Source: Candidatus Omnitrophota bacterium (GTDB lineage Bacteria > Omnitrophota > Gorgyraeia > Gygaellales > Profunditerraquicolaceae). From it: a stretch of DNA of 64,000 bases. This document shows positions 21,270-45,913 of the stretch, piece after piece (the stretch's first letter is position 1; the number at the start of each line of letters is the position of its first letter). Under the pieces are notes generated by a model. The model was not told the DNA's origin, did no database searches, and saw nothing but the letters and a program-made list of their open reading frames with translations. Both the position numbers and the translations under genes were made by a program. The stretch spans positions 52,978-116,977 of the forward strand of contig JBAZTA010000005.1 in assembly GCA_041662125.1 (NCBI GenBank), in the 5' to 3' direction.

Positions 21270-21282
21270 ATATAAAGGTTTT

Positions 21283-30244: not shown

Positions 30245-30389
30245 GTATAGGTTTAAGCAGCTTAAAAAAGGCAAGTCATCTGTTGTTTTCTGACGGAAGA
30301 TTTGCCTTTTTTATTGCCGCGTTTATACCGATTTCTCGCTCTTGATAAGGCTTGAAATTCTCATAATTAACGATATAATGATAAAGGTT

Positions 30390-31580
30390 ATGCCAAAGAT
30401 CAATCTCCTTTATATCATTACGAAATTAGAGCTGGGTGGGGCGCAAAAACAACTCTTAAGCTTGATTGCCAGCCTTGATAAAACCAGGTATACTGTCGTA
30501 TTGTTTACCGGTAATAAGGGGTTGTTGTTACAGGATTTTGCCTCAATTCCCGGGGTGACGATCCAGGCGTCGCGGTTTCTGGAAAGGCCGATCAATCCTT
30601 TAAAAGATCTTATAGCTTTCTTTGAGATTTATTGGTTCATCCGGAAACAAAAGTTCCATATCGTCCATACGCATAGTTCTAAAGCCGGAATTATTGGCCG
30701 CCTTGCCGCGCGGATGGCTCATACGAGTTGTATTATTCATACGGTGCATGGGTGGCCGTTCAATGATCATCAGCCTGGTTTTGTAAGATTTGTTTACATT
30801 TGGCTTGAAAGGATATGCGCGCGGTATTCTGATAGAGTGGTTGTTGTTTCGCGTTTTGATAAACAAAAGGGGCTTACCCAAAAGATCGGCAGGGAACCTG
30901 TGTATTGCCTGATACGCTATGGGATTGATCATGATAAGTTCAGGCGTCAAAAAGAAGATGTCCGGATGAGTGTAAGGGACAGTTTCGCAATACGAGCGGA
31001 TGAATTGCTCATCGGTATGGTCGCCTGTTTTAAACCTCAAAAAAACCCCCTTGATTTCATCAGGGTAGCTTCCTTAATAAGGGATAGCGTAGCGCCTGAA
31101 AAAGTTTCTTTGGGCGTCAAATTCCTGCTTATCGGAGATGGGGTTTTACGCGGCCGTATTGAGGAATTGACCCATGCGTATGGGCTCGATGAACAGGTGA
31201 TCTTAGCCGGCTGGCGGCAAGATATGCCCGCGCTTTTTTCTGCAATGGATATTCTGGTTCTGACTTCTTTATGGGAAGGAATGCCTATCGTGGTATTGGA
31301 AGCGATGCGATGTGGTGTGCCGGTAGTCGTAACTAATACCGGAGGGGTAGCTGAAGTAGTTAAAGATGGCGTGACCGGATTTTTAGTACTTGCGCATGAA
31401 CCCGCATTGATGGCGCAGCAGGTGAGCGTTTTATTAAAAAACGATATTTTAAGGAAACGCATGGGGCAGACAGCAGCAGAGGCGTTGGGAGATAGCTTTC
31501 GCGTTGGAAACATGGTGGTAGAGACGCAAGAGATGTATGAGGATATCTTGAAAAAAAAGGGGCCCGGTTATGATCACTAA
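30390..31580 (+). CDS. Family 4 glycosyltransferase (GT4, retaining, GT-B fold)
   Basis: N-terminal KINLLYIITKLELGGAQKQLL. C-terminal EGMPIVVLEAMRCGVPVVVTNTGGVAEVV (E-x7-E motif). Start ambiguous (30342 TTG, 30378 ATG, 30390 ATG); 30390 chosen for the MPKI + AAAGG context. Confidence 0.7.
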   Translation: MPKINLLYIITKLELGGAQKQLLSLIASLDKTRYTVVLFTGNKGLLLQDFASIPGVTIQASRFLERPINPLKDLIAFFEIYWFIRKQKFHIVHTHSSKAGIIGRLAARMAHTSCIIHTVHGWPFNDHQPGFVRFVYIWLERICARYSDRVVVVSRFDKQKGLTQKIGREPVYCLIRYGIDHDKFRRQKEDVRMSVRDSFAIRADELLIGMVACFKPQKNPLDFIRVASLIRDSVAPEKVSLGVKFLLIGDGVLRGRIEELTHAYGLDEQVILAGWRQDMPALFSAMDILVLTSLWEGMPIVVLEAMRCGVPVVVTNTGGVAEVVKDGVTGFLVLAHEPALMAQQVSVLLKNDILRKRMGQTAAEALGDSFRVGNMVVETQEMYEDILKKKGPGYDH

Positions 31581-32556
31581 ATTTGTTCTCTTGTTTCTTA
31601 TCGCCTCAGGCGTGAGTTTTTTGTTTTTGCTTTTTTTTATGAAGCGATTCGCGAAATCAAAGGTTTTATCTGTGCGCGGCATCCCTCTTGTCGGAGGTAT
31701 CGCGATAGCTTTAAGCTTTTTGGGCGTAGCGGTTATTTGGCTTATCGGCGGCGGCTTCTGGTCAAAAGAACTCTTCGGATTGCTGGGGGCTTCAATGGTT
31801 ATGTTAGTTTTCGGCATTGTTGATGATGTTAGAGAATTATCCGTTGCATCTAAATTCGCGGTCCAGATCATTGCGGCTTTGCTGCTCATTTTTTTCAATG
31901 TAAGGACCCAAATCGCCTTGATCGGCACTATTCCTAATGCGCTTATTACGTTGGTGTGGGTGGTCGGAATCACCAATGCGTTTAATCATTTGGATGTTAT
32001 GGACGGTTTGGCTGGGGGTGTTGCCATGATCGCGGCGTTTTCTTTCTTCGTTCTGGGGCTGTTTCAATATGATTTAAGTATCGCGATCATTTCGATAATA
32101 TTAGCCGGCACTCTTTTAAGTTTCTTGATTTATAATGTTCCTCCTGCCCGTATGTATATGGGTAACTCCGGCAGTCATTTCTTAGGTTTTGTCCTGGCAG
32201 CGATTGCTTTAGTCCTGCAATACGCTCAAATGGAAAACCGGGTAGCGTTGTTGAGCCCTCTTTTGATCCTGGGTTTTCCGATTTTTGATACGATATTTGT
32301 CATGCTGGTGCGTATGCGGCGGAAAAAATCGGTTTTTAAGAAAAGTATTGATCATTTTGCGTTGCGATTGCTCAAAGCCGGGTTTTCAAAACGAAAGGCG
32401 TTGTTGTGTATGGGGGGCGTGTCTTTAATTTATTCCTGCTGCGGAGTTGTTTTGCATGTTCTCAAGAATCAAACGGGGATTATTGTCATCTTAAGCTTAG
32501 TTCTCTGCAGTTTTCTGCTAACCAAAGCTGTCGGTAAAGCATCATTAGATGGTTAA
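31570..32556 (+). CDS. Polyprenyl-phosphate N-acetylhexosamine-1-phosphate transferase (WecA/MraY family)
   Basis: GIPLVGGIAIALSFL, IVDDVRELS, NAFNHLDVMDGLAGG motifs. ~10 TM helices. Confidence 0.85.
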   Translation: MITKFVLLFLIASGVSFLFLLFFMKRFAKSKVLSVRGIPLVGGIAIALSFLGVAVIWLIGGGFWSKELFGLLGASMVMLVFGIVDDVRELSVASKFAVQIIAALLLIFFNVRTQIALIGTIPNALITLVWVVGITNAFNHLDVMDGLAGGVAMIAAFSFFVLGLFQYDLSIAIISIILAGTLLSFLIYNVPPARMYMGNSGSHFLGFVLAAIALVLQYAQMENRVALLSPLLILGFPIFDTIFVMLVRMRRKKSVFKKSIDHFALRLLKAGFSKRKALLCMGGVSLIYSCCGVVLHVLKNQTGIIVILSLVLCSFLLTKAVGKASLDG

Positions 32557-33853
32557 AAAAAGAATTATTATTTTAGGGGCAGGTGTTGCTGGTTTGAGCG
32601 CTGCATGGCATTTGCAGAAAAACAATATTGATTGCCATGTGTATGAAAAAGAAGATGAAGTAGGCGGATTATGCCGCTCCCAGAAAATAGAAAATTTTAC
32701 TTTTGATTATTGCGGGCACGTACTGCATTTCAGGCACGCGTATGTGTTTGATCTGATCAAAAAGATGTTAGGCGGCAATTTAGCCGCACATCGAAAAAGC
32801 GCCTGGGTCCATTCGTTTGGGGTTGATACCCGTTATCCTTTTCAGGCAAATCTTTTCGGGTTGCCGCATTCGGTCGTTGAAGAGTGCCTCTTGGGTTTTA
32901 TTGAGGCGCAAAAGAGTGATGGTAAGGGAATCGGTCAAAAACAGGATTTCTCCTCCTGGATACATGCTACATTTGGAAACGGTATCGCGCGTCATTTCAT
33001 GATCCCCTATAATACGAAATTCTGGACCATTGCGCCGGAGAAAATGACCTGCGAATGGTTTGATGGTTTTATACCCGTACCTACGTTAAGGGAAGTTGTT
33101 GAAGGGACTATTGAAGAAAGTAAACGGCAATTCGGCTATAATGCCCGGTTTTGGTACCCTAAACAGGGGGGGATAAGCCAAGTCCCTCAGGCGTTTGCCA
33201 AGGGGCTTGCGAATATATGTACCGGCATTCGAGTTACGGGGATCAATCTGGAAAAAAAAGAAATAACTCTTTCTTCCGGGCATAGCCAAGCTTTCGATTG
33301 TTTGATCTCGACACTGCCTTTACCTGAGGTGGCAAAGCTTTTGCATTGGATGCCGCCGGCGGCGAGGAGGTCGTTTGCAAAATTAAGATGGAATTCGATC
33401 TATAATTTGAATCTCGGATTTGATGGAGCAGAAGGGTCTCGGCGTCATTGGATATATTACCCGAAGCCAGATGTGTGCTTTTTTCGCGCTGGTTTCCCGC
33501 ACAATTTCTCTTCTGATCTTGTTCCGGCTCATAAAAGCTCTTTATATATTGAAGTCGCTTATTCACAAAAAAAAGATATTGATAAAAGGAGTATTATTGC
33601 CCGTATAAAAAAAGATCTAAAGAAAGTCGGCCTTTTTTCTGCGGAAAACCATGTGCGTGTCAGTCGTGGCAATGATATTCAATACGGGTATCCTTTGTAT
33701 GACAGAAATTATAACCTGGCGCGCAGTGTGATCGTACGCTACCTTTTGGGAAAAAACATGTTTTTATGCGGCCGGTATGGCTCATGGCGGTATATGTCCA
33801 TGGAGGATGCGATACTTGACGGCAAGAATACAGCGGAATCATTCTTATTATGA
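32549..33853 (+). CDS. FAD-dependent oxidoreductase (amine-oxidase / UDP-galactopyranose-mutase-like fold)
   Basis: N-terminal KRIIILGAGVAGLSAAWHL...VYEKEDEVGG (FAD-binding GxGxxG + acidic residue). Length 434 aa. Confidence 0.6.
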   Translation: MVKKRIIILGAGVAGLSAAWHLQKNNIDCHVYEKEDEVGGLCRSQKIENFTFDYCGHVLHFRHAYVFDLIKKMLGGNLAAHRKSAWVHSFGVDTRYPFQANLFGLPHSVVEECLLGFIEAQKSDGKGIGQKQDFSSWIHATFGNGIARHFMIPYNTKFWTIAPEKMTCEWFDGFIPVPTLREVVEGTIEESKRQFGYNARFWYPKQGGISQVPQAFAKGLANICTGIRVTGINLEKKEITLSSGHSQAFDCLISTLPLPEVAKLLHWMPPAARRSFAKLRWNSIYNLNLGFDGAEGSRRHWIYYPKPDVCFFRAGFPHNFSSDLVPAHKSSLYIEVAYSQKKDIDKRSIIARIKKDLKKVGLFSAENHVRVSRGNDIQYGYPLYDRNYNLARSVIVRYLLGKNMFLCGRYGSWRYMSMEDAILDGKNTAESFLL

Positions 33854-34629
33854 TACAAAACAGGATCAAAGCGCTTTTTCTTTACCGGCATACGCTCTGG
33901 GATATGGCGATCTCACAGCTTAAAGCGCGGTATGCATCATCTTTTTCCGGGATATATTCTTCTTTGATCAGCCCTTTCTTGATCATGTCGGTCATAACAT
34001 TTGTTTTTACCTGTGTTTTTAAAGTGGAGATGCGTAATTTTCCTTTGTTTATTTTCTCGGGTATCATTCCCTGGATGTTTTTCTCAAACGCGTTAACAGA
34101 ATCTGCGTCTTCCATTTTGAACCAACTTAACATTTTGCGGCAGTTTAACCTCCCCCGGGAAATCTTGCCGTTAAGCTGTGTCTTGGCGCATTTTCTTAAC
34201 TTTCTTGTCGGTTGGGTGGTTCTCTATCCGGTTTTTTTGTTTTTTAACCCGAAAATAATCCTTCTTTTGCCGTTTTTATGTATCATCATTCTTCTTCACC
34301 TGGTTTTGCTGCTGGGGTTGGGGCTGCTTTTATCAGTCCTTACCGTTTTATTCCGGGATATCGTTTATTTACTCTCAGTCGCACTTATGTTCCTGTTTTG
34401 GATCACTCCTGTTTTTTATTCCACTGCTGTCATGCCCGCGCAGTTCCAGTGGATATTTAACTTTAATCCCATGGTCCCGTTTATCCTTGCCTATCAGAAG
34501 ATCCTTTATTACGGCGTCATCCCTGAAACCTTTTTGATCTTGAGTGTTTTTTCCTGGTCAGTGATGAGTGTTATTCTGGGTTTTATTGTTTTCTCGCGTC
34601 TTGAGAATAAGATCTTAAAAAATATATAA
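33850..34629 (+). CDS. wzm: ABC-2 type polysaccharide exporter permease (Wzm/KpsM/TagG family)
   Basis: LFLYRHTLWDMAISQLKARYASSFSGIYSSLISPFLIM motif region. 6 TM helices. Start overlaps upstream stop (ATGA). Confidence 0.8.
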   Translation: MIQNRIKALFLYRHTLWDMAISQLKARYASSFSGIYSSLISPFLIMSVITFVFTCVFKVEMRNFPLFIFSGIIPWMFFSNALTESASSILNQLNILRQFNLPREILPLSCVLAHFLNFLVGWVVLYPVFLFFNPKIILLLPFLCIIILLHLVLLLGLGLLLSVLTVLFRDIVYLLSVALMFLFWITPVFYSTAVMPAQFQWIFNFNPMVPFILAYQKILYYGVIPETFLILSVFSWSVMSVILGFIVFSRLENKILKNI

Positions 34630-37350
34630 ATGAAGATCATTTCTTTTAACGATGTCTGGGAAATGTACCGCCTTAAGATGGTGGTAGCTCATAAGGCGCA
34701 GTGGGAAAACTTCTGGGCGTTAAAAGGAGTTTCTTTCGATATTGAGCAGGGAGAGACGGTCGGGCTTATCGGCGGCAATGGCATGGGTAAAACAACCATA
34801 TTAAAATTGATCATGGGTATGCTGCAGCCGGACAGGGGCCAGATCAAAGTAAACGGCAGAGTGTCTGGTTTACTGGAGTTAGGCGCCGGATTTCAACCGG
34901 AGTTGACGGGATTAGAGAACGTTCATTTGAATGTCGGCTTGTTTGGCGTTGCGCATAATGAAATCGATGAGAGAGCGAAAGATATTGTCAGTTTCGCTGA
35001 AATCGGCAGGTTTATAAACGCGCCGGTTAAATGTTATTCTCAGGGTATGTTTGTAAGGCTTGCTTTTGCCATCGCCATACACGTTAATTTCGAGATCCTT
35101 TTAATTGACGATATCTTGGCGGTCGGCGACGAATTTTATCAAAGAAGGTGTATTAAGAAGATTTTGGAACTAAAAGAACAGGGCAAGACTATTATTTTTG
35201 TCAGCCATGACCTCGCTCTGCTGGGGCGCCTTTGTAAAAGGGCATTGTTTATGAAAGACGGGCGGTTGATCAAAGATGACCTTATCGATAATTCTATTTC
35301 ATTATATTCACAGACGATAGGTGCCAAAGAAGGCGTGGCGGTTTTAGAGAAGAAGCCCCTCGATGTTGTTTTTAATAATGGCAGTGTTTTCTTTAATTGG
35401 AATGAAAAACTCCTGACCCCTAATACCGGAGTGACGAGTTCTTTTTTTATATCAAACCAATGGTATAGTTCTACCCAGGCTGAATGGGAAGTCACTCAGG
35501 TCAGTGAGTCTGAATTTTGTGCCCGTGGCGTTTTCTATCACGTGCCGTTAACGATACTCTGGAGAATATCTCTATGCGAAGGAAATGAGATAAAGTTCAG
35601 TTTCAGCAGTGAGGCTTCCCGGCTACTGGAGATCAAAACGGGGCATATCGATTTTATGTTCATTAATGAATATGCCCGGTGGGTAACTGCGGTCGAGTCA
35701 GGCGAATTCCCTGTTATTGATTTGCAAGACGCGCATGCAAAGCCTCAGCTTGAGCACAATGTTTCACGCCAGTCTATAGGCCTGCTCGCCGGGGGCCACC
35801 GGCGTGAAGTTTTCATTCCGTCTTTGGGCATTTCTTATGATAGCTGTACGCAGGTAAAGAAGACCCAAGTGTATAACACTGACTATATGGGGAATTGCCG
35901 GCTCATACGATTTAGCACTGGCGCTTTCTTTCAAGACGCCGGCTTAGAGCCTCAAGCGTCCGTTTATTTTCAAGGGTCGGTTGTGTTTAATGTCCCTGAT
36001 ATCAACAGCTTTTTGATCCAGAAACAGAATGATGTAATTCTGACTCAAGGCGATCTTCGCTTGATGTTTAATAATGGCTCATGTTTGCTTGCCTGGGCAG
36101 GCATTTATTTGACAAAGACGTATCATTTGATAACGTTGATCTTTTCGAAAGGAAAACAATGGCCTTCTAATAACGCGCAGTGGGATGTTGAGAAGGCCGG
36201 CGTTTATTCCTTGACTGCTCGGGGAATCCGTCCGGGGCTCGGCTTTGTTGAAGTATGGCGCCTGGAGATCACGGGAAAATCTTCTTTCCGCTGGCAAGTT
36301 GGACTTGAAGTCAAACAGGAGATCCCTCTTGAAGAACAATATATGTGTTTTATGTGTTCAGAGCAGTATCGCTCCTGGTTTGCTGCCCATGGCAGGGGGA
36401 GTTTTCCCGATAATTTTCTGGAAACAGATGTAGACGTTGCGCAGCGGTGTATCGGTGAGGGATCAGTCGGCGTATACAGTGAGAATAAACAGTTCCCAAC
36501 TTTAACGGTCAGGTTTTCCAAAGAGCTGAATAATTTCGCCAAGATAATGAATGCTGATTTTAATGAAAGAGCCCGGATCGTGCGCATTCAAAGGGTTGAG
36601 CCGGAAAAGGATATTCTTCATTCTCCCGGGACGTATCCTTGCCTGGATGTGGAAGTGGTATTGGGTGAGGATGCCCCTCAGGGCACTGAATCCGCCCGTA
36701 GTACGGTGCAGTCGGATAAACTAAAGTTCGTCTTTGAGAAAGGACGGGGTGAGTTGTTTTGGGATGGTGTCGAGCTCACGAAACGTTTGGGATTCTATAC
36801 TGCTTTACGTTGCGGCGGGCGTTGGTATGATTCTTTGTCTGATGCGCTCTGGAAAGTGCAGCAGAAAGATACGTTGGTGTCCGCGCGAGGTAAATGGCAG
36901 CATTTGCCTGTAAGCCAGGTATGGGAAATACGGCTACATTCCAGCACTTCGATCGAAGTAGTGGTAAAAATGATCGTTGAGCAGGAAATAGAAGTCGACC
37001 GGATACAGGCAAACCTGATGCTGTTAGAACGGTATACCCGCTGGACGGCAGGGAAAAGTTCCGGGGAATTTTCCGATTTTAAAGATACTCTTGATGATGA
37101 TTGGGATAGTGTTTACCGGGAAACCAATGGTTTGGGATGTATCGGCGTAGGAGCCGTTAAAGACTCATCTGTGTATATGCCTGCTGTGCATGTTTCTTAT
37201 AGGAAATCAAGTTTTACCTGGGTGCCGACAGTTATTAATTCTGACATTTATCATCGAGCCAGAGTCCTTCAAATGTTGAACTCAAAGACTCAGAAGATAC
37301 CCGCTGGTGAATACATGTATTTCATCGGTGAAATAAAGATCTCCCATTAA
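34630..37350 (+). CDS. wzt: ABC polysaccharide exporter ATPase (Wzt/KpsT family) with ~650-aa C-terminal extension
   Basis: Walker A GGNGMGKTT, signature/Walker B region LLIDDILAVGDEF, H-loop VSHD. Residues ~250-906 are extra and have no recognised motif. Confidence 0.8.
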   Translation: MKIISFNDVWEMYRLKMVVAHKAQWENFWALKGVSFDIEQGETVGLIGGNGMGKTTILKLIMGMLQPDRGQIKVNGRVSGLLELGAGFQPELTGLENVHLNVGLFGVAHNEIDERAKDIVSFAEIGRFINAPVKCYSQGMFVRLAFAIAIHVNFEILLIDDILAVGDEFYQRRCIKKILELKEQGKTIIFVSHDLALLGRLCKRALFMKDGRLIKDDLIDNSISLYSQTIGAKEGVAVLEKKPLDVVFNNGSVFFNWNEKLLTPNTGVTSSFFISNQWYSSTQAEWEVTQVSESEFCARGVFYHVPLTILWRISLCEGNEIKFSFSSEASRLLEIKTGHIDFMFINEYARWVTAVESGEFPVIDLQDAHAKPQLEHNVSRQSIGLLAGGHRREVFIPSLGISYDSCTQVKKTQVYNTDYMGNCRLIRFSTGAFFQDAGLEPQASVYFQGSVVFNVPDINSFLIQKQNDVILTQGDLRLMFNNGSCLLAWAGIYLTKTYHLITLIFSKGKQWPSNNAQWDVEKAGVYSLTARGIRPGLGFVEVWRLEITGKSSFRWQVGLEVKQEIPLEEQYMCFMCSEQYRSWFAAHGRGSFPDNFLETDVDVAQRCIGEGSVGVYSENKQFPTLTVRFSKELNNFAKIMNADFNERARIVRIQRVEPEKDILHSPGTYPCLDVEVVLGEDAPQGTESARSTVQSDKLKFVFEKGRGELFWDGVELTKRLGFYTALRCGGRWYDSLSDALWKVQQKDTLVSARGKWQHLPVSQVWEIRLHSSTSIEVVVKMIVEQEIEVDRIQANLMLLERYTRWTAGKSSGEFSDFKDTLDDDWDSVYRETNGLGCIGVGAVKDSSVYMPAVHVSYRKSSFTWVPTVINSDIYHRARVLQMLNSKTQKIPAGEYMYFIGEIKISH

Positions 37351-39272
37351 TGGATATTTCTATAGTTGTTCCGACATTTAACCGTAAAAATAAGCTTAAA
37401 TCCTGCCTGGAATCGATTTTTGCCCAGGATTACCCCTTAGAGCGTTTTGAAATTATTGTTGTTGATGACGGCTCTACTGATGGGACCAAGGACATGGTTG
37501 CAGCATTAAAGCCTGCTTTTCCTCATCTGCGTTATTACTATCAGGAGAATCAAGGGCCGGCAGCTGCCAGGAATTTCGGGGTCAGGCAGTCAAAAGCTGA
37601 CATCGTAGGGTTTACTGATGACGATTGCCGATTAAGCAGATCATGGGTGCGCGCGATGCTTGCATCGTATGCTTTAGAGCCTTTGGCAGACGTTGTCGGA
37701 GGCAAAACAAGCGTTGATGCGCGCAACATAAAAGCGCTGGTGAGCCAGTCTTTAAGTGACGGCGCGATATTCGCGGATATAGGGGTTGAGAAAAAGATAA
37801 TTTTTTTCCCGACCTGTAATGTCTCTTATAAAAAAAGCTCTGTGAACGCAGAATTTGCTCAGTCATTCTGTTTTCCTGCCGGTGAAGACCTGGAGTTTTT
37901 CTGGAGGCTGTATAAGGGCGGAAGCAGGTTTGTTTTTAATAAAAATATCGCAATCACTCACAATTGCCATATGAACCTGAGGTCGTTTATTCGTCAGGCA
38001 TACTTATACGGCAGAGGTAATTTCCGGGTTAAGTATGTCCATCAAGACCATCCTTTATTAAAAGAAATAAAAACGAACAATATTTTTTGTTTCTTCGGGG
38101 CAACAATACTTAATTTATTGAAAATACCGCGTTTTGCTTATACGTTAGGTTTTTCTTTGGTGAAAAAACACCGCATCCGCGGGTTTTATACGCGGCTGCA
38201 GGTTTTTGCGTTTTTTATACTGCATAAGGTCGTGTATTTGCTTGGCAATTTTGTCGAATATTTCACGGTCAGAAAAATGGCTCAACCAGGACAAAGCGTT
38301 GATTGCCCTTCTATAACAAACAGCCTTCTCAAGCCGGAAACTATTATATTGGATATTACGCATCGCTGTAATCTTTTCTGCACAATTTGCGATATAAGAA
38401 AAGATAAACCTATTCTTGAATATTCCACGCAGGAAGTAAAAGATCTTATCGTGCAGGCAATTGACTGGGGAGTTCATGATTTTGTGCTCTCCGGCGGGGA
38501 AGCGCTCATGCGCAAGGATATTCTCTCAATCCTTGATTTTGTTAAGGAAAAGAAGTATTGCGTTGGTTTGCTGACAAACGGAATTTTGCTCACTCAGGAT
38601 TTCCTCAGGGTACTTTTGCCGTATTTAACTTCTGGTTCGTTATCGCTCTGTATCTCTCTTGATAGTTTGCGCGCCGCTGTTCATGACGAGATCCGCGGTC
38701 TGCCGGGGTGTTTTGATAAAACATTCGCGGGTATTACAATGCTTGCGCAGCAAAAACAAGTTTTTCCGAACATAAATTTTAACGTGATCACGATCATACT
38801 CAACGAAAACTTAGAAGAGCTGCAGACGATCGCCAGTACTGTTTTATCGTTGAATGCTAATTCTTTGCAATTTCAGCCTTTACTTTCCAATAACCGGATC
38901 TTGAAAGACAGGGCAGATAAGGTTAAATATTGGGTGCCTCGAGAACGAATACCGGTCCTTGATAAAGCCATCGATGCTCTGGTCGTCTTTAAAAAGGCTA
39001 ACCCCGCGTTTATGAGGAATTCTGAAAACAATCTTGAATTAGTAAAGAAATATTTCCGGGGAAGCCTTGTAAATTCTGATATACAGTGCCATAACGCGGC
39101 AAAAACTATGCTTATTGCCTATACCGGCGATATAACGACTTGTTTTGATTGTTATGGAAATATACGCAAAGAGCCCTTAGAGCAAATCTTTCATGCTCCT
39201 GCGGCAGAGCAGGCGCGCCGGAAAGCTGCCGGTTGCGCAGCACCGTGCCTGCTGCCATGTTTTACCGACTAA
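37350..39272 (+). CDS. Fusion protein: N-terminal family 2 glycosyltransferase + C-terminal radical SAM/SPASM domain
   Basis: N-term ISIVVPTFNRKNKLKSCLESI...EIIVVDDGSTDGT...FTDDDC (GT2). From ~aa 330 ILDITHRCNLFCTICDI (CX3CX2C), LSGGEALMRKD and C-terminal Cys cluster (CHNAAKT...TCFDCYGN...CAAPCLLPC). Single uninterrupted ORF of 640 aa. Confidence 0.75.
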   Translation: MDISIVVPTFNRKNKLKSCLESIFAQDYPLERFEIIVVDDGSTDGTKDMVAALKPAFPHLRYYYQENQGPAAARNFGVRQSKADIVGFTDDDCRLSRSWVRAMLASYALEPLADVVGGKTSVDARNIKALVSQSLSDGAIFADIGVEKKIIFFPTCNVSYKKSSVNAEFAQSFCFPAGEDLEFFWRLYKGGSRFVFNKNIAITHNCHMNLRSFIRQAYLYGRGNFRVKYVHQDHPLLKEIKTNNIFCFFGATILNLLKIPRFAYTLGFSLVKKHRIRGFYTRLQVFAFFILHKVVYLLGNFVEYFTVRKMAQPGQSVDCPSITNSLLKPETIILDITHRCNLFCTICDIRKDKPILEYSTQEVKDLIVQAIDWGVHDFVLSGGEALMRKDILSILDFVKEKKYCVGLLTNGILLTQDFLRVLLPYLTSGSLSLCISLDSLRAAVHDEIRGLPGCFDKTFAGITMLAQQKQVFPNINFNVITIILNENLEELQTIASTVLSLNANSLQFQPLLSNNRILKDRADKVKYWVPRERIPVLDKAIDALVVFKKANPAFMRNSENNLELVKKYFRGSLVNSDIQCHNAAKTMLIAYTGDITTCFDCYGNIRKEPLEQIFHAPAAEQARRKAAGCAAPCLLPCFTD

Positions 39273-39287
39273 AGCGGGATACCTACG

Positions 39288-40421
39288 ATGAGTATTGATC
39301 ATAAACGGTTGTTGTATTTGGCGCGGCGCGGCTTTCTGTTTTGGCTTTCCCGGAAAATTGACTATCCGCTTGTTTCCCCTGATTGCCTGCAGATCAATTT
39401 TACCTTCCGCTGTAATTTGCGTTGTAAAATGTGCAGTATGCAGGAGCGTATGGAGTCGTTTCGCCTGCAAAATAAACAAATAGAATTAGATAAGCAGACT
39501 ATAAAAAAGCTTATTAAAGAAGCCTTTGCTATGGGTGTTGTGTATTTGATCTTGATAGGAGGGGAGCCGTTCTTAGACCCCGGGATATATGAGATCATTG
39601 CATATGCCAAACAATGCGGGATGCGTGGTGTGACTGTTGTTACTAACGGGACGCTGTTTTCTGAACCTGTTATAAAGGAAATTTTTGATTGTAAGCTGGA
39701 TAACTTAAGTATTTCTATCGATGCGGCTTCAGAGGCAGTTGTTTCTCAAATACGAGGGGAGAACGTTTTGCAAAAGATCATCGATAACGTAACGCTGCTT
39801 AACCGGATGAAAGAACGCGCTCAGTTGGCCCTGCCGAATATTGTATGTGTATGCACAATTATGAACCAAAATGTGCATGAGATCATGGATGTTGTCGCGT
39901 TGTGCCGGAAGTTAAAGATCCCGCGGATCATCTTTCAGCCCGTTGTGCACGACAATACCGATCAAAACCGTATTGATTTCAGTTCCGATGTTTTTATCCC
40001 GGCACAAAAGTTTTCGGTGCTCGATGGTGCAATTGATTCCCTTATTGAGTATAAGCAATCAAATCGTAATAATTATGAGTTTGTTGCCAATTCGACCGTC
40101 CATTTAAAGCTAATAAAAAAATATTTCCGCTCTGCTTTAAAACCCCGGGAGCTGCCTTGTTATTCCGGTTTTAATCGTATTCAGGTGGTCCAGGAAGGAA
40201 AAATATATTTTTGCGTTAATCAGTCTGAGCATGAAGCAGTCGTGGGGAATATGAATACCGATAGTTTGAAAGCAGTGTGGTTTTCAAAAGAAGCCCGGGA
40301 CTTAAGAAAATTGATACGTAAATGCGTGTTTCCCTGTTTGCAGTGGTGCGCGTACCGCGATGAATTTATTGAGATATCAGATATTTGGGAAAAAAACAAG
40401 CTTTTTAAAAACAATCCGTAG
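39288..40421 (+). CDS. Radical SAM enzyme with SPASM-like domain
   Basis: FTFRCNLRCKMCSM, IGGEPFLDP. C-terminal CYSGFNRIQV...CVNQSEHEAVVGNM...CVFPCLQWC. Confidence 0.75.
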   Translation: MSIDHKRLLYLARRGFLFWLSRKIDYPLVSPDCLQINFTFRCNLRCKMCSMQERMESFRLQNKQIELDKQTIKKLIKEAFAMGVVYLILIGGEPFLDPGIYEIIAYAKQCGMRGVTVVTNGTLFSEPVIKEIFDCKLDNLSISIDAASEAVVSQIRGENVLQKIIDNVTLLNRMKERAQLALPNIVCVCTIMNQNVHEIMDVVALCRKLKIPRIIFQPVVHDNTDQNRIDFSSDVFIPAQKFSVLDGAIDSLIEYKQSNRNNYEFVANSTVHLKLIKKYFRSALKPRELPCYSGFNRIQVVQEGKIYFCVNQSEHEAVVGNMNTDSLKAVWFSKEARDLRKLIRKCVFPCLQWCAYRDEFIEISDIWEKNKLFKNNP

Positions 40422-40439
40422 GAAAATACAAGAAACGAT

Positions 40440-41864
40440 ATGAGAAACGCTCAAAAACAGGCAGAGTTAGTTTTGGTTATGTGCCCCTTATGGGGCGTAT
40501 CTCAGCCTCCGATCAGTATCAGTTACCTCAGTGGGTTTTTGCAGAAGCATGGTGTCAGTGTCAGATGTTTTGATTTTAGTTCGGCGTTGTATAGGGTTTT
40601 TCCGGAAAAGAAGTGCTGGGACTTGAATTTCCCGGAATATTTTATGTCTCCTGAACTTTTTAACCGGCATATCAAACCTGTTTTAAATCCGGTTATCAGC
40701 GATTGGGCTGGGCAAATTCTGGCGTTGCGTCCTTCTGTGGTAGGGTTTTCTTTATTTATGTCAAATATGTCTGCGAGTTTGCTTTTAGCTCAGGAGCTCA
40801 AAAAACGTGCCCCTGATCTTCTAATCGTCGCGGGAGGCTGTGAAGTCACCAGGATCAAACGCATATACGTTGACGGCATACAGCGCAGAGCGCATCTGGA
40901 TACCGATGTTATAGACAGCGGTGTTTTTGACCTGTTTATTGACGGGGAGGGGGAACAATCACTCTTGGAAATAGTTTCTTTGATCAGGAAAAATGAGGAT
41001 TTTCATTTGATCAAGGGCGCAGTGTTCCGCCAAAATGGGAAGTTTGTTGCCAACCCGCCGCAAGAGCTCATGGCTAACCTCGATATCGTGCCGCCTCCTG
41101 ATTTCCATGATTTTTTTCTTGATGATTATACAAGGCGCAGCCTGCCGATCGTTACCAGCCGCGGTTGCGTGAACCGGTGTACTTTTTGTGCCGACAGCCC
41201 TTTGTGGAAAGTCTACCGGTACCAGTCAGCGGAAAAAGTTTTTAACGAATTCTCTTTCTTATCCAAAGAATACGGCATCTCTGATTTTGAAATAGTCGAT
41301 TCAACGTTTAACGGTAATATCGAGCGCGTGGATAAGCTCTGCGCGTTGATCATTAAGTCTGGCTTAAAGATCCGCTGGGCAGCAAAAGCGACGCTGCGCA
41401 AAGAAATGGATCATGCTTTGTTATGCCATATGCAAAAAGCCGGTTGCGTCGATCTTGCTTATGGCGTAGAAAGCGGCTCCTACCGTGTGCTGCAGGATAT
41501 GCGTAAGAATACCGATCTGCTTGAGATCAAAAGGATCATACGAGATACCTGGAAAGCAAAGATCCGGGTGAATAGTTTTTTCCTGATCGGTTACCCGACA
41601 GAAACGGAAGATGATTTTCAGTTAACCCTTGATTTTGTCAAGGAAAACGCGCGCTATATTCATCGTTTTGACCAGATCACCGGTTGCCATTTAGAAGAAG
41701 ATTCTTATTTGAGCCTTAATGCACAGCAATATGGTATCGAGATAAAAGATGACGGGTGGTGGAGCCCTGTGAGCACGCCTGCTATACGTAAAGACCGGCT
41801 CAATAGGTTTCGTGAACTTGCGCGCAAACTCCATGCGCATTATCGCTGTGAAGTGCAGCTGTGA
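40440..41864 (+). CDS. B12-binding (class B) radical SAM enzyme
   Basis: TSRGCVNRCTFCADS, GVESGSYRVLQDM. N-terminal B12-binding-like domain. Confidence 0.75.
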   Translation: MRNAQKQAELVLVMCPLWGVSQPPISISYLSGFLQKHGVSVRCFDFSSALYRVFPEKKCWDLNFPEYFMSPELFNRHIKPVLNPVISDWAGQILALRPSVVGFSLFMSNMSASLLLAQELKKRAPDLLIVAGGCEVTRIKRIYVDGIQRRAHLDTDVIDSGVFDLFIDGEGEQSLLEIVSLIRKNEDFHLIKGAVFRQNGKFVANPPQELMANLDIVPPPDFHDFFLDDYTRRSLPIVTSRGCVNRCTFCADSPLWKVYRYQSAEKVFNEFSFLSKEYGISDFEIVDSTFNGNIERVDKLCALIIKSGLKIRWAAKATLRKEMDHALLCHMQKAGCVDLAYGVESGSYRVLQDMRKNTDLLEIKRIIRDTWKAKIRVNSFFLIGYPTETEDDFQLTLDFVKENARYIHRFDQITGCHLEEDSYLSLNAQQYGIEIKDDGWWSPVSTPAIRKDRLNRFRELARKLHAHYRCEVQL

Positions 41865-43021
41865 TACATATGAAACTGCTTAAAGAATTAGAAAAGAACC
41901 TGGGGTATTATTTCTCAGGGGTAGTTAATGCCCCTTTGAGTAAACCGCATTGGATATTTGTGAGCCTGACGCATCGCTGTAATTATTCTTGTCAAATGTG
42001 CGGAGTAAGCAAGATCTTACGGGAGCATGAGTTGGATTTTGGGCTCCTGCAAAAAGTTTTTAAAGAGATAGCAGGATGGGATTCTGATTGTGTCATGGTT
42101 TTTACCGGCGGGGAGCCTTTTTTGCGCAAGGATATATTTGAGATCATTGCCTGCGCGGTTTCTCTGGGAATTAAAACTGAGTTGGTCAGCAATGGAAGCC
42201 AAATTATAGACAGGGCTATCGCGCGCAAGATAATACGTTCGGGATTAAGCAATATCGCTATTTCTCTTGATGGCGCATCTGCAAAGGTCCATGATGGCAT
42301 ACGGGGAGTTCCCGGCGCATTTGAGATGGCTTTGGATGCGTTAGGCTTCTTAAGTGAAGAAAAAAAGTTGTATCCTTGCGGCCCGCAGATCTCTGTTTGG
42401 ACGACCATAATGAAAGAAAATGTATTTGAGTTGTCACAGATCATTCCCGTAACCAGGGCGCAAGGCGTTGAATGCCTCGTATATCACCCGGTGATTGTGA
42501 CGCAAGATGATATGCAAAATACGATCAAATCCGGGCATTTTTGGGTTACCGAAGAATATATCGCGCCTTTAAAACAACAAATAGAAAAAATAGCCGCATA
42601 TCAGAAGAAAGAAGGGTATGTCGCATTTTTGCATGACCCATTTTTATGGCTTCGATATTTTCAGTGGGATCTTACAAAAGAAGACTGGAAATGTAATCCT
42701 TTTGTTTTTATTGATATCGGGCCTGATGCCTTTGTAAGAAGCTGCGGCCCGGCTTTTGGCAATGTCAAAGAAATGACCTTGAGTGAATGTTTAGAGACTA
42801 AGGAAGCAAATCGGGCGCGGGAAAGAATGCTGCGCTGTGATCGGCCGTGTTTACAGACTTGCTGGGGCAGGCCGGAGGCCGACGCTTTAGAAGATATCGT
42901 GCGGAATTTCAGCAAAGAAGTAGAGGGCTTGCGCGTTTCAAAAGGGCGGAAAAAAGATGTGTTGAACGCTGCTGTCGCGTTATTGTCACGGTATGAATCC
43001 ATGATCCGCAAAGATTATTAA
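41861..43021 (+). CDS. Radical SAM enzyme with SPASM-like domain
   Basis: LTHRCNYSCQMCGV, FTGGEPFLRKD. C-terminal CGPAFGNVKEM...CDRPCLQTC. Confidence 0.75.
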   Translation: MIHMKLLKELEKNLGYYFSGVVNAPLSKPHWIFVSLTHRCNYSCQMCGVSKILREHELDFGLLQKVFKEIAGWDSDCVMVFTGGEPFLRKDIFEIIACAVSLGIKTELVSNGSQIIDRAIARKIIRSGLSNIAISLDGASAKVHDGIRGVPGAFEMALDALGFLSEEKKLYPCGPQISVWTTIMKENVFELSQIIPVTRAQGVECLVYHPVIVTQDDMQNTIKSGHFWVTEEYIAPLKQQIEKIAAYQKKEGYVAFLHDPFLWLRYFQWDLTKEDWKCNPFVFIDIGPDAFVRSCGPAFGNVKEMTLSECLETKEANRARERMLRCDRPCLQTCWGRPEADALEDIVRNFSKEVEGLRVSKGRKKDVLNAAVALLSRYESMIRKDY

Positions 43022-43023
43022 AA

Positions 43024-44187
43024 ATGGAACCACGATTATCAGAAGTGATTATTTCGATCACAAACCGCTGTAATTTGCAGTGCGCGATGTGCCAGATACC
43101 GTTGAGGGCTGCTCCGGAAATGACGACGCCTGAACTCAAAGGCTTGATCGAGGATATCGTTGATCTGCATCCCCGCAGTATCGTTTTTAGCGGCGGGGAG
43201 CCGCTCATGCGTCCTGATATCGGCGAGCTGATCGCGTTCGCGAATCAGCGTAAAGTCAATACCTGCCTTACCTCAAACGGGACAATGATCACTGATCAAA
43301 CGGCTGCCATGCTTGCCTCATCAGGTGTGGGCGTGGTCAATGTTTCTATTGAGGGTGGCCAAGAGATCCATGACGCGTTGCGCGGGCGCGGTAATTATAA
43401 GAAAGCTGTTGATGCTTTGGAAAACTTACGGCGCCATAAGATCGAAACAACGATCGCTACCATGGTATGTAACCTGAATTTCGGCTCCCTTTCTGAAGTC
43501 ATGGAATTGGCCGCTCGTTTTGGGGTAACGACGGTAAAATTCCAGCCGTTCAGCGATATATTCTTAAAGGATAAGGCGGACGCCGGCCGGTTTTTTTGCG
43601 GCGAAAAAACAATCGATGATATCCGCGGGAACATAGAAAAAGTCATAGAACTCTCCAGGAAATACAGGATTTCTACTAATCCGCCTGCTTATCTGAGGAA
43701 TATTCCCGAGTACCTCACGGGCATGAGCAAGTATAGTACAAATGTTCAATGCCCTGCTTTATGGACTTCCTGCCCGATCTCTTCAGAAGGGGATGTCCAT
43801 CTCTGTTGGGTGCTTTCTGAAATTGTTATCGGCAATTGTAAGAGTAAAAAGATCACTGAGATCTGGGGCTCGGTTGCCCATGACCGGTTGCGAAAATCCG
43901 TGCTGAAAGATAAATGTTCAGGCTGCCTTATGAGTTGCTATGATACGCAGTACGGTACCAATAGTATCCCTGAATTGATAGCTCTTAAAGCCCGGAAAAT
44001 AAAACAGCCTCAATTCTACAAGCGCCAGTATTTTAGGGCGTATCAATACGCGCAATACCTTTTTAAGAAAGTTTTCAATACCCTGCTGCGTTTAAATAAT
44101 CCTCTTAAGAAAAATAAAAAAGCGGTATCCCTGGTTTTAGACGAGATTCGCGCCGCAAAAGATTTCTTAAGGAAACAAATGCATTGA
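43024..44187 (+). CDS. Radical SAM enzyme with SPASM-like domain
   Basis: ITNRCNLQCAMCQI, FSGGEPLMRPD. C-terminal CPALWTSCPISSEGDVHLCW...CSGCLMSCYD. Confidence 0.75.
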   Translation: MEPRLSEVIISITNRCNLQCAMCQIPLRAAPEMTTPELKGLIEDIVDLHPRSIVFSGGEPLMRPDIGELIAFANQRKVNTCLTSNGTMITDQTAAMLASSGVGVVNVSIEGGQEIHDALRGRGNYKKAVDALENLRRHKIETTIATMVCNLNFGSLSEVMELAARFGVTTVKFQPFSDIFLKDKADAGRFFCGEKTIDDIRGNIEKVIELSRKYRISTNPPAYLRNIPEYLTGMSKYSTNVQCPALWTSCPISSEGDVHLCWVLSEIVIGNCKSKKITEIWGSVAHDRLRKSVLKDKCSGCLMSCYDTQYGTNSIPELIALKARKIKQPQFYKRQYFRAYQYAQYLFKKVFNTLLRLNNPLKKNKKAVSLVLDEIRAAKDFLRKQMH

Positions 44188-45496: not shown

Positions 45497-45913
45497 GTGA
45501 CTATGAAAAGAAAAAAGATGCCGACAACACGTGTTTTAGATCTTACCGCGATAGCGGTCCTGGTGGTGGGGCTTGTATTATGCGGCTATGTGCTTTTTTT
45601 TAAGTTTATCGGTGTCAAGTCGGTGCTCATCAGTATTGTAACATTTCTGATGAGCGTTGTTTTAGCCGCGTTGATCCGCATGATCGGGATAATGGGTGAG
45701 TTCCTGTATACGATCACAGAATCTTTGTTTACCCTGAATCAATCGGTTGTATCATTGTCTGATGATGTTTTACGCCAGGAGCTATCGGAAATCTCGGAAA
45801 TAAAGCATGGTATTGAGAAAATAAGTTCAGACACAAAAGATATTACCGTGAGTATTGATGATATTAATGTTTTTTTTCAGAAAATAGAGCGGCATTTAGA
45901 CCTGAAAAGATAA
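45497..45913 (+). CDS. Small membrane protein, hypothetical
   Basis: AAAAGGAG RBS upstream. Two TM helices, then a predicted coiled-coil tail. Confidence 0.5.
   Translation: MTMKRKKMPTTRVLDLTAIAVLVVGLVLCGYVLFFKFIGVKSVLISIVTFLMSVVLAALIRMIGIMGEFLYTITESLFTLNQSVVSLSDDVLRQELSEISEIKHGIEKISSDTKDITVSIDDINVFFQKIERHLDLKR

Follow-up and report, generated by a model that had tools for sequence, protein, structure and literature searches.

What does a protein that joins a glycosyltransferase to a radical SAM enzyme do, and on which molecule does its radical half act? The question is raised by a gene in a stretch of 64,000 nucleotides (hereafter the window) from a Candidatus Omnitrophota bacterium; members of this uncultured phylum are ultra-small and partly dependent on hosts. 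Antibiotic pathways and two lipid head-group pathways are known to use radical SAM chemistry on sugars. We know of no account of it in the assembly of bacterial surface polysaccharides, and the literature searched contained none; nor did that search find any description of a glycosyltransferase-radical SAM fusion system in surface-polysaccharide pathways, two Xanthomonas papers naming both terms proving unrelated.

The original prediction, made from sequence, placed GT2 motifs, radical SAM motifs and a C-terminal multi-Cys region in one uninterrupted frame at 37350-39272, and each of these elements was recovered. The forward strand carries a single 640-aa ORF without stop or frameshift, with IVVPTFNR (residues 5-12), VVDDGSTDGT (37-46) and FTDDDC (88-93) in its N-terminal half, CNLFCTICD (340-348) and SGGEALMRKD (381-390) further on, and Cys residues at 580, 598, 601, 629, 633 and 637. 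Both domain assignments are supported by HMM searches, all Pfam matches passing their gathering cut-offs, an agreement well beyond chance. The gene and its parts are as follows:

37350..39272, + strand: GT2-radical SAM/SPASM-like fusion gene, 640 aa, ATG start (Pfam and homologs)
37350..38054, + strand: GT-A catalytic core, residues 1-~235 (Pfam, conservation, fold)
38082..38282, + strand: three conserved helices closing the GT2 half, residues 245-311 (conservation, structure)
38259..38333, + strand: inter-domain linker, residues 304-328 (homolog alignment, pLDDT)
38334..38909, + strand: radical SAM core, residues 329-~520 (Pfam, conservation, fold)
39075..39269, + strand: SPASM/twitch-like tail, residues ~576-640 (Pfam, conservation)

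The GT2 half (residues 1-~311) is followed by a variable, disordered linker and the radical SAM half (329-640). The linker is poorly conserved, ranges from 10 to 26 residues across homologs and is predicted to be disordered (pLDDT < 50 at residues 310-325); the two modules are tethered by this short flexible segment. The same full-length architecture was found in other genomes, in at least 120 protein clusters (identity 45-79%, query coverage 97-100%) and about 60 species-level genomes, nearly all of them Omnitrophota, and NCBI, JGI and Logan each list the identical protein. A mis-assembly or sequencing frameshift that fused two genes could in principle mimic such a protein, and two loci (L057 and L064) do carry the halves as separate, overlapping ORFs broken in the linker. 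However, both breaks coincide precisely with the linker, a position that one would expect of a modular protein, or of local sequencing errors in those MAGs. The single frame is kept in the at least 120 protein clusters, and in 49 species-level loci, despite the variable linker length. In the DNA of the domain junction (38200-38400) unusual homopolymer runs were not found. Because the full-length architecture is conserved in relatives, a chimeric assembly is excluded; we give an artefact of either kind a negligible chance and conclude that the gene encodes a genuine two-module protein. Its ATG overlaps the stop codon of the upstream wzt gene (TAATG), and the fusion is translationally coupled to Wzt, inside a glycan operon.

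Catalytic motifs of both halves are invariant among 59 homologs. The N-terminal half is a predicted inverting GT-A/GT2 glycosyltransferase: Glycos_transf_2 (PF00535) matches residues 4-121 (E 2.9e-32, 112.4 bits against a cut-off of 23.3), PF13641 and PF10111 also exceed their cut-offs, the half adopts a GT-A fold in the structural comparison, and the invariant residues comprise D40, D90-x-D92 (nt 37617-37625) and G178-E179-D180 (nt 37881-37889). An Asp at the position of the catalytic base is conserved in TarS, TarP, SpsA and PcManGT (PMC12595478), and D180 is the putative general base here, by inferred structural equivalence to that Asp. The fold of this half resembles WrtF, TarP, TarS and K4CP, and its closing helices, which superpose on those of PcManGT, HAS and BcsA, are probably membrane-interface helices. 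We also considered a polyprenyl-phosphate transferase of the GtrB/ArnC/DPMS type, which would have two transmembrane helices, but this is not supported: the profile scores lie far below those to glycan-extending GT2s, the helices contain invariant polar residues (N255, K258, R261, H292, K293 and N300), and their hydropathy is only borderline (Kyte-Doolittle maximum 1.57).

In the C-terminal half, Radical_SAM (PF04055) matches residues 336-495 (E 3.8e-18, 66.6 bits against a cut-off of 29.5), the partial TIM-barrel fold of radical SAM enzymes is present, and C340-X3-C344-X2-C347 (nt 38367-38390) and G382-G383-E384 are invariant. The tail matches SPASM (PF13186) marginally at residues 580-629 (E 2.3e-5, 25.0 bits against a cut-off of 21.5), a precomputed match that only some homologs carry. 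The SPASM family motif has seven Cys (CX9-15GX4C, a gap, CX2CX5CX3C, a gap, C) and ligates two auxiliary 4Fe-4S clusters. The first element is present and invariant in the fusion as CX12GX4C (C580...C598), and the second reads CX3CX3C (629/633/637); five Cys of the tail are invariant, while 49% of homologs keep C601 and 64% keep C639. The tail could bind one cluster (twitch-like) or two that are incompletely Cys-ligated. By both sequence and fold the closest solved relative is BlsE, a decarboxylase of a free nucleoside-sugar; DesII, a TDP-sugar enzyme, is a further structural neighbour, and SkfB and SuiB are close as well. None of the named NCBIfam equivalogs (AhbD, NirJ, BlsE, MftF, EpsD and others) reaches its curated cut-off for the fusion, the highest scores being 141 against 370 bits for EpsD, 126 against 280 for MftF (TIGR03965, matched by the GT2 half), 90 against 500 for AhbD and 56.6 against 400 for BlsE (TIGR04466).

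The fusion lies in a tightly packed operon (junctions of -41 to +45 nt) that, judged from its gene content, is a Wzm/Wzt ABC-transporter-dependent, polyprenyl-phosphate-linked glycan export operon: Wzm and a Wzt-type ATPase are encoded together with a predicted polyprenyl-phosphate transferase and cytoplasmic glycosyltransferases. Besides the fusion, the operon and the gene adjoining it comprise:

30342..31580, + strand: GT4 (GT-B fold) glycosyltransferase, first gene of the operon
31570..32556, + strand: WecA/MraY-type polyprenyl-phosphate HexNAc-1-P transferase, initiating enzyme (PF00953)
32549..33853, + strand: UDP-galactopyranose mutase (UGM) homolog, flavoenzyme (4dsg, E 1.6e-42, residues 4-416)
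33850..34629, + strand: Wzm, ABC-2 permease
34630..37350, + strand: Wzt, 906 aa, ATPase followed by three beta-modules
39288..40421, + strand: radical SAM/SPASM paralog, 28% identical to the radical SAM half of the fusion and with the same C...C / CX3CX3C tail
40440..41864, + strand: first B12-binding radical SAM enzyme
41861..43021, + strand: radical SAM paralog, in the conserved core after the variable block
43024..44187, + strand: radical SAM/SPASM paralog, conserved core
44184..45470, + strand: GT2, 428 aa
45497..45913, + strand: small protein, 138 aa, no family match; hydrophobic N-terminal segments are read from its sequence
45913..47271, + strand: second B12-binding radical SAM enzyme, HpnJ-like (255 bits, below the cut-off of 577.6)
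47231..48106, + strand: GT2, 291 aa
48103..50165, + strand: CysD and CysN, sulfate adenylyltransferase subunits
52897..54039, - strand: membrane protein with a Wzy_C / O-antigen-ligase domain, adjoining the operon

Counting both halves of the fusion, the operon encodes six radical SAM, three GT2 and one GT4 domain. The WecA model TIGR02380 scored 100 bits on the initiating transferase, below its cut-off of 326. No classical SDR-type enzyme modifying sugar nucleotides was found in the operon, only the UGM homolog, and a promoter and terminator scan returned sites no more frequently than in shuffled sequence.

The Wzt ATPase is 39-43% identical to the O-antigen Wzt of Aquifex aeolicus. Residues ~236-906 form three homologous all-beta modules of about 215 aa each, repeats that hhalign detected and self-BLAST missed. 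Pfam found no Wzt_C (PF14524) in the Wzt of the window, and a profile of the repeats matched no PDB sequence and was unrelated to a Wzt carrying Wzt_C, a module that is present in the divergent P0125 branch. Wzt_C occurs only in the subset of pathways that recognise a chain cap and is not obligatory.

Gene order of the operon is conserved phylum-wide in Omnitrophota. Between the fusion and the next GT2 gene, related loci carry three to seven radical SAM modules and no glycosyltransferase. The number of radical SAM modules varies without any change in glycosyltransferase number between the two conserved GT2 genes; radical SAM genes, not glycosyltransferases, make up the variable part of the locus. 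Related clusters contain independent radical SAM fusions of other glycosyltransferases, another GT2 and a GT4, which span two different folds. At locus L001 the ortholog of the GT2 at 44184..45470 also carries a radical SAM/SPASM domain in the same protein (880 aa). Relatives also include triple fusions (GT2-rSAM-rSAM) and arrays of at least seven radical SAM genes; the third module of 963-aa relatives is not orthologous to any radical SAM gene of the window (23% identity).

Multidomain tailoring or terminating enzymes are familiar from glycan assembly (the kinase-methyltransferase WbdD of E. coli O9a and WbbB of Klebsiella O12), and we know of no radical SAM enzymes in these ABC-dependent pathways, nor were any found in the literature searched. 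With ABC-dependent O-antigen and glycan pathways, such as the Rhizobium tropici wzm/wzt operon with WrtF, the locus shares WecA-type initiation, cytoplasmic GT2/GT4 assembly on a polyprenyl carrier, Wzm/Wzt export, modifying activities fused into multidomain proteins and an extra C-terminal module on Wzt, which in known systems reads the terminal modification (PMC12595478). It differs from them in its six radical SAM domains, one of them glycosyltransferase-fused, and in a Wzt whose three ~215-aa beta-modules are unrelated in sequence to canonical Wzt_C.

Among known radical SAM systems, the hopanoid side-chain pathway (HpnI, a glycosyltransferase, HpnK, and HpnJ, a radical SAM enzyme) and the calditol synthase Cds offer a precedent in which a glycosyltransferase attaches a sugar to a lipid anchored in the membrane and a radical SAM enzyme afterwards rearranges it in place (PMC13459092), and the second B12-radical SAM enzyme of the operon resembles HpnJ. 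These are, however, separate proteins acting on one membrane-lipid head-group sugar and not on an exported polymer, and hopanoid or GDGT genes are absent here. The sugar-acting radical SAM enzymes of secondary metabolism, BlsE and DesII and also BtrN, NeoN and AviX12, belong to antibiotic pathways, where each works as a stand-alone protein on a small sugar of the nucleoside, nucleotide or aminoglycoside type. None of them is known to be joined to a glycosyltransferase or to have its gene in an export operon for surface glycans. In the proteusin/RiPP pathway of polytheonamide (PoyB/C/D) several radical SAM enzymes tailor one polymer. Proteusin pathways share with the locus the side-by-side SPASM-type and B12-dependent radical SAM genes and, plausibly, repeated action on one polymeric scaffold before export, but there the scaffold is made ribosomally, as a peptide that comes with a leader and an RRE; here neither a precursor peptide nor an RRE was found, and the machinery is specific to carbohydrates. 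Mycofactocin biosynthesis likewise pairs a SPASM radical SAM enzyme (MftC) with a GT2, MftF, from the broad subfamily to which the GT2 half belongs; among glycosyltransferase models, TIGR03965 gives the second-best match. Its enzymes are not fused, however, and MftF decorates a peptide-derived cofactor; the MftA, B, D and E genes are absent here, and the MftF score remains below its cut-off.

On this basis we favour, at about even chances, a reading in which the fusion is a bifunctional enzyme of an ABC-dependent, lipid-linked glycan pathway, with its radical half acting on a lipid-linked sugar. The tethered radical SAM half would reductively cleave SAM to give a 5'-deoxyadenosyl radical, which would take hydrogen from a C-H bond of a sugar residue in the lipid-linked intermediate, with epimerisation, oxidation or deoxygenation, decarboxylation or C-C bond formation as possible outcomes. 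The three to seven downstream stand-alone radical SAM and B12-radical SAM enzymes would then tailor the glycan further, before export by Wzm/Wzt. The ABC-dependent route is the sole polysaccharide pathway that keeps the finished chain in the reducing, SAM-containing cytoplasm, and it is compatible with radical SAM tailoring because the chain stays there.

The original prediction had argued that the radical substrate is the nascent glycan or its lipid-linked precursor and not a peptide. A sugar remains the favoured substrate, whereas its lipid-linked state is less secure: a nucleotide-sugar donor is equally compatible with the fusion, and BlsE, the closest solved structure, acts on a free nucleoside-sugar. 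The radical SAM half might turn a common nucleotide sugar, UDP-hexose or UDP-hexuronate for example, into an unusual donor for the attached GT2. The fusion would then channel a donor that is labile or rare, and nucleotide sugars would be the substrates of the other radical SAM enzymes too. BlsE as the closest solved relative, DesII as a neighbour, the short tether, which suits hand-over of a diffusible product, and the lack of a classical SDR-type enzyme in the operon, a role that the radical SAM enzymes could fill, all speak for such a route. If each donor has its own transferase, however, extra donors would need extra transferases, and the three to seven radical SAM modules come without a matching change in glycosyltransferases; GT2-rSAM-rSAM fusions and arrays of at least seven genes better fit serial tailoring of one scaffold, and we consider donor synthesis unlikely, though still to be reckoned with. 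Chemistry on the lipid itself (the polyprenyl carrier or a membrane lipid, cf. Tes, GDGT-MAS and the hopanoid enzymes), with the glycosyltransferases adding head-group sugars and a tailored glycolipid as product, appears very improbable: matches to lipid enzymes fall well under the family cut-offs and are weaker than those to BlsE, SkfB and SuiB, the operon has no lipid-synthesis genes, and a polysaccharide is the product to be expected from Wzm/Wzt, UGM and the ligase-like gene.

There is good support for a substrate other than a peptide. Some points do favour a peptide: its maturation is the best-known role of SPASM-type radical SAM enzymes, SkfB and SuiB lie close by in structure, RiPP C-methyltransferase models give the first B12-radical SAM enzyme its highest scores (TIGR03975 with 151 and ApyD with 148 bits, both sub-cut-off), and the GT2 half has its sub-cut-off match to MftF; a glycocin-like or mycofactocin-like RiPP, or a protein, might thus be matured, glycosylated and exported by the ABC transporter. 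Yet no RRE/PqqD-like Pfam match occurs in the fusion or the other operon proteins, the region N-terminal to the radical SAM core is taken up by the GT2 domain and a disordered linker, and the operon leaves no free intergenic space for a precursor gene. A search of the intergenic gaps of 68 related loci found no conserved small ORF, the largest family being present in only two. The transporter is of the O-antigen Wzm/Wzt type and not a peptide exporter, WecA, UGM, GT4 and the ligase-like gene are carbohydrate machinery, and all peptide-related NCBIfam models stay far under their cut-offs. These results speak against a RiPP cluster, and we regard a peptide or protein system in general as quite improbable.

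We tentatively propose, as a reading that is less likely than not, a "radical glycan maturation" system in Omnitrophota, and possibly in some DPANN-labelled genomes, in which three to eight radical SAM and B12-radical SAM enzymes, some fused to glycosyltransferases, tailor the lipid-linked surface glycan at the polymer level while the ABC-dependent route keeps it in the cytoplasm. If true, the reactions might include epimerisation, C-methylation, ring contraction or cross-linking, and the system would be for carbohydrates what proteusin/RiPP maturation is for peptides. Diversity of the surface would come from exchanging radical SAM genes, not glycosyltransferases; the triple beta-module of Wzt would check a radical-made epitope before export, and the Wzt-adjacent fusion may make the cap.

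Because the conserved fusion sits in an export operon rich in radical enzymes, our findings suggest that Omnitrophota remodel surface sugars by radical chemistry. Repeated glycosyltransferase-radical SAM fusions, together with the variable radical SAM block, would mean that glycans are diversified in a new way, one giving sugar structures beyond ordinary nucleotide-sugar chemistry. The 640-aa protein, with both predicted activities, offers a clonable entry point for radical chemistry on a lipid-linked or polymeric carbohydrate. Such chemistry would bear on the cell surface of Omnitrophota and may matter for host interaction.

The gene at 37350..39272 on the + strand is one 640-aa ORF without internal stops, in which Pfam recognizes Glycos_transf_2 (residues 4-121, E 2.9e-32), Radical_SAM (residues 336-495, E 3.8e-18) and SPASM (residues 580-629, E 2.3e-5), each above its gathering cut-off. 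This confirms the original observation of a single polypeptide with no stop between a GT2 glycosyltransferase and a radical SAM enzyme; the motifs quoted for both were all found at their positions, and the protein belongs to the GT2 family and to the radical SAM superfamily. In an AF2 model built from a 59-sequence alignment (mean pLDDT 87.9), a GT-A core (residues 1-~235) is followed by three more helices (245-257, 259-273 and 279-311), a disordered linker (310-325, pLDDT <50), the radical SAM barrel (331-~510) and, at the C-terminus, a small domain rich in Cys; with a pTM of 0.53, the model does not define how the two halves are oriented to each other. Because helices 245-311 carry invariant polar residues (N255, K258, R261, H292, K293 and N300) and are of borderline hydropathy (Kyte-Doolittle maximum 1.57), we read them as probable membrane-interface rather than membrane-spanning elements.

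A word-indexed search through 5.8 billion proteins gave 1118 matches, the best 120 of which cover 97-100% of the query at 45-79% identity, measure 582-976 aa (nearly all 620-670) and each contain both the GT2 and the Radical_SAM domain. Many different assemblies (NCBI, JGI, ENA and Logan) contributed these 120, and every organism named by a source is Candidatus Omnitrophota or Omnitrophica; NCBI, JGI and Logan all record an identical protein, which lies on a 183-kb contig. With each GTDB species represented by a single genome, a scan gave 72 loci, nearly all in Omnitrophota MAGs (some auto-labelled 'uncultured Planctomycetales/Planctomycetia'); 49 of the 72 loci carry a full-length fusion ORF. 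Across 59 aligned homologs, D40, D90/D92 and G178-E179-D180 are invariant in the GT2 half and C340/C344/C347, G382-G383-E384, C580, C598, C629, C633 and C637 in the radical SAM half, whereas the linker (E303 to P329) is poorly conserved and varies from 10 to 26 residues with the frame kept in every case. The halves have diverged similarly (mean pairwise identity 57% and 59%; r = 0.47, a descriptive value only). In two MAG loci, L057 (5215-7111) and L064 (10001-11906), they are separate overlapping ORFs broken exactly in the linker, either natural splits or local frameshift errors. The recurrent full-length architecture and the frame held across a variable linker rule out an artefact.

No NCBIfam equivalog model reached its cut-off with the fusion and no named equivalog applies: EpsD (141 bits against 370) and MftF (126 against 280) were the top glycosyltransferase models, and the top radical SAM models, AhbD, NirJ2 and BlsE, all fell short. 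The list for the GT2 half comprises PcManGT (22.2), BcsA (21.8), K4CP (21.5), AvpGT (21.3), GlfT2 (20.4), WrtF (20.3), and TarP and TarS (about 19). In a profile search of PDB sequences, the glycan-extending GT2s K4CP (139 bits), GalT1 (85), TarS (77) and TarP (62) stood far above the polyprenyl-phosphate GT2s DPMS (47), GtrB (37) and ArnC (31-34), and BlsE was the top radical SAM enzyme (58 bits, E 6e-15). Searched exhaustively by itself, the radical SAM half drew 24102 matches, only 87 of them below E 1e-30; this small, tight family is made up mainly of fusions, with a few stand-alone proteins at 43-49% identity, one of them encoded within a run of seven radical SAM genes. The canonical SPASM motif has seven Cys, including CX2CX5CX3C, whereas the fusion has five invariant Cys (C-X12-G-X4-C ... 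C-X3-C-X3-C), and because of this departure its place in the SPASM subfamily is only tentative, and one auxiliary cluster is as possible as two. The pattern (C-X16-17-C ... C-X3-C-X3-C) is common to the paralogs at 39288-40421 and 41861-43021, and the three may define a subfamily.

The fusion lies in an operon running from 30342 to 52235, in which all genes are on the + strand with junctions of -41 to +45 nt:

From 30342, + strand: GT4, first gene
Second gene, + strand: WecA/MraY-type transferase (PF00953)
32549-33853, + strand: UDP-galactopyranose mutase (UGM) homolog, a flavoenzyme, full-length against 4dsg (eukaryote-type), E 1.6e-42
Between UGM homolog and Wzt, + strand: Wzm (ABC-2 permease)
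34630-37350, + strand: Wzt (ATPase), 906 aa, directly 5' of the fusion
37350-39272, + strand: GT2-radical SAM fusion
39288-40421, + strand: radical SAM/SPASM, next after the fusion
Second gene after the fusion, + strand: B12-radical SAM
41861-43021, + strand: radical SAM
43024-44187, + strand: radical SAM/SPASM
44184-45470, + strand: GT2
45497-45913, + strand: 138-aa protein whose N-terminal segments are hydrophobic as judged from the sequence
After the 138-aa ORF, + strand: HpnJ-like B12-radical SAM
Between the HpnJ-like gene and CysD/CysN, + strand: GT2
From 48103, + strand: CysD and CysN (sulfate activation), toward the operon end
50172-51374 and 51420-52235, + strand: two alkaline-phosphatase-superfamily ORFs
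Just downstream of the operon, - strand: Wzy_C/O-antigen-ligase-like gene

The Wzt stop codon overlaps the fusion start codon (TAATG). Although Pfam labels 32549-33853 an amine oxidase, its homology to eukaryote-type UGM implies a putative furanose sugar in the product. With CysD and CysN encoded at the operon end, the glycan may be sulfated. The ORFs at 50172-51374 and 51420-52235 correspond to the first and the second portion of a single Phosphodiest/sulfatase-type profile and look like a split or frameshifted gene. The 138-aa protein has no family match, and similar ORFs hold its position in three related loci (L008, L024 and L027). The 64-kb window has ten radical SAM domains, and glycan-biosynthesis functions make up the majority of its genes. 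Four more radical SAM genes lie upstream (5172-6980, 10381-11436, 21214-22380 and 22302-23771), among GT-C (PMT_2), GT2, SDR epimerase, ATP-grasp and carbamoyltransferase genes and one for a 1180-aa PQQ_2 beta-propeller protein. Near the window ends, a CHAT-protease/TPR protein (61419-63623) and an AsmA/DUF748 protein (505-2208) have no obvious link to the fusion.

Residues ~236-906 of Wzt form a 650-aa C-terminal extension in which an all-beta module of about 215 aa occurs in three homologous copies (hhalign E about 1e-42; AF2 whole-Wzt model, mean pLDDT 81.8). No relationship to Pfam families, PDB sequences or Wzt_C was detected for it; its 21 homologs, nearly all about 905 aa and one 681 aa, are from Omnitrophota where named. 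The extension may be a new substrate-recognition module.

A common frame, GT4 - WecA - UGM - (TPR) - Wzm - Wzt (~905 aa) - fusion - radical SAM block - radical SAM (41861-type) - radical SAM (43024-type) - GT2 - B12-radical SAM - GT2, recurs with fusion homologs down to about 41% identity. The long Wzt is present in 37 of 42 informative cases (directly upstream of the fusion in 23), a radical SAM gene directly follows in 39 of 44, and 2-8 further radical SAM modules lie within 10 kb downstream (median 6, n = 30). In 16 of the 17 loci in which the fusion and the following conserved GT2 can both be seen, 3-7 radical SAM modules and no glycosyltransferase lie between them. This block, whose window counterpart is 39288-44187, is hypervariable between conserved flanks in loci L006-L073 (e.g. 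L008, L022, L035 and L039), a variation that resembles serotype cassettes but is carried by radical SAM genes. A divergent branch around homolog P0125 (611-623 aa; L043, L051, L055, L078 and L079) is on contigs labelled Woesearchaeota, Nanoarchaeota or 'archaeon', which could reflect horizontal transfer between ultra-small lineages or mis-binning; its neighbours are radical SAM enzymes, GT2s, a GT4, a GT-C and Wzm/Wzt, the Wzt with a canonical Wzt_C glycan-binding domain. Other fused architectures (L080 10698-12840; P0018, P0122, P0133, P0137 and P0138, among others) include GT2-rSAM-rSAM (963-976 aa), B12-rSAM-GT2-rSAM (1161 aa), another GT2 type with two radical SAM modules after it (1167-1251 aa), a triple radical SAM protein, a radical SAM/SPASM-GT4 fusion and, at L001 20045-22687, an 880-aa ortholog of the GT2 at 44184-45470 (45% identity) with its own radical SAM/SPASM module.

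It had been argued that the radical SAM substrate is the nascent glycan or its lipid-linked precursor rather than a peptide. The exclusion of a peptide holds up: the fusion lacks the features of RiPP maturases, Pfam finds no RRE/PqqD domain in it or the other operon proteins, the operon junctions leave no room for a precursor-peptide gene, and no small-ORF family is common to more than 2 of 68 related loci. Radical SAM domains have become fused, repeatedly and independently, to glycosyltransferases with two different folds, and by Rosetta-stone reasoning this is evidence that both chemistries serve one pathway. Given these repeated fusions, the absence of RRE and precursor, and gene surroundings that are all carbohydrate machinery, a carbohydrate substrate is well supported and, in our judgement, quite probable. 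The lipid-linked glycan is less settled, as a nucleotide sugar is a live alternative, one that the kinship of the radical SAM half to BlsE and DesII and an operon without classical SDR-type sugar-nucleotide-modifying enzymes would both fit. Against it, radical SAM number is decoupled from glycosyltransferase number, triple fusions exist, and the ABC-dependent route is the only one in which the entire chain stays cytoplasmic; for these reasons we consider it more likely that the lipid-linked glycan is tailored.

Judging from sequence, gene context and structure prediction, we propose that the GT2 half would dock on the membrane via its interface helices and move a sugar onto a polyprenyl-PP-linked glycan, with D90/D92 serving metal and donor and D180 acting as base. 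The 10-26-residue tether would keep the radical SAM half within a few nanometres, where SAM would be cleaved at the C340/C344/C347 cluster and hydrogen taken from a sugar carbon of the lipid-linked intermediate, the auxiliary cluster(s) managing the electron for oxidation, epimerisation, decarboxylation or C-C coupling. The downstream radical SAM and B12-radical SAM enzymes would tailor the glycan further before export by Wzm/Wzt and, perhaps, attachment by the ligase-like protein. More speculatively, since the conserved, translationally coupled pair is formed by the fusion and the long Wzt, the fusion may produce a terminal epitope read by the Wzt beta-modules, by analogy with the terminators WbdD and WbbB. 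Terminating groups are recognised by Wzt carbohydrate-binding modules (PMC12595478).

ABC-dependent O-antigen pathways with multidomain terminators share the logistics of this operon but are not known to use radical chemistry. In HpnI/HpnK/HpnJ and calditol synthase, a radical SAM enzyme follows a glycosyltransferase on a lipid-anchored sugar, but as separate proteins and on a single head-group sugar (PMC13459092). BlsE, DesII and other sugar-acting radical SAM enzymes are of the same fold class as the radical SAM half but use small substrates, and proteusin maturation likewise directs a SPASM and B12 radical SAM array at one polymer, which there is a peptide. The two-domain architecture is already in databases under generic names; our full-text literature search found no description of a GT2-radical SAM fusion or of a Wzm/Wzt glycan cluster containing radical SAM enzymes. 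Variable polysaccharide cassettes are mentioned in a recent preprint on Omnitrophota genomes, which lists radical SAM domains in a different setting, that of giant proteins; a term search of this preprint turned up no passage on the present system. We classify the system as a glycan pathway of the ABC-dependent kind whose proposed radical SAM tailoring arm, of which the fusion is the epitome, is unprecedented.
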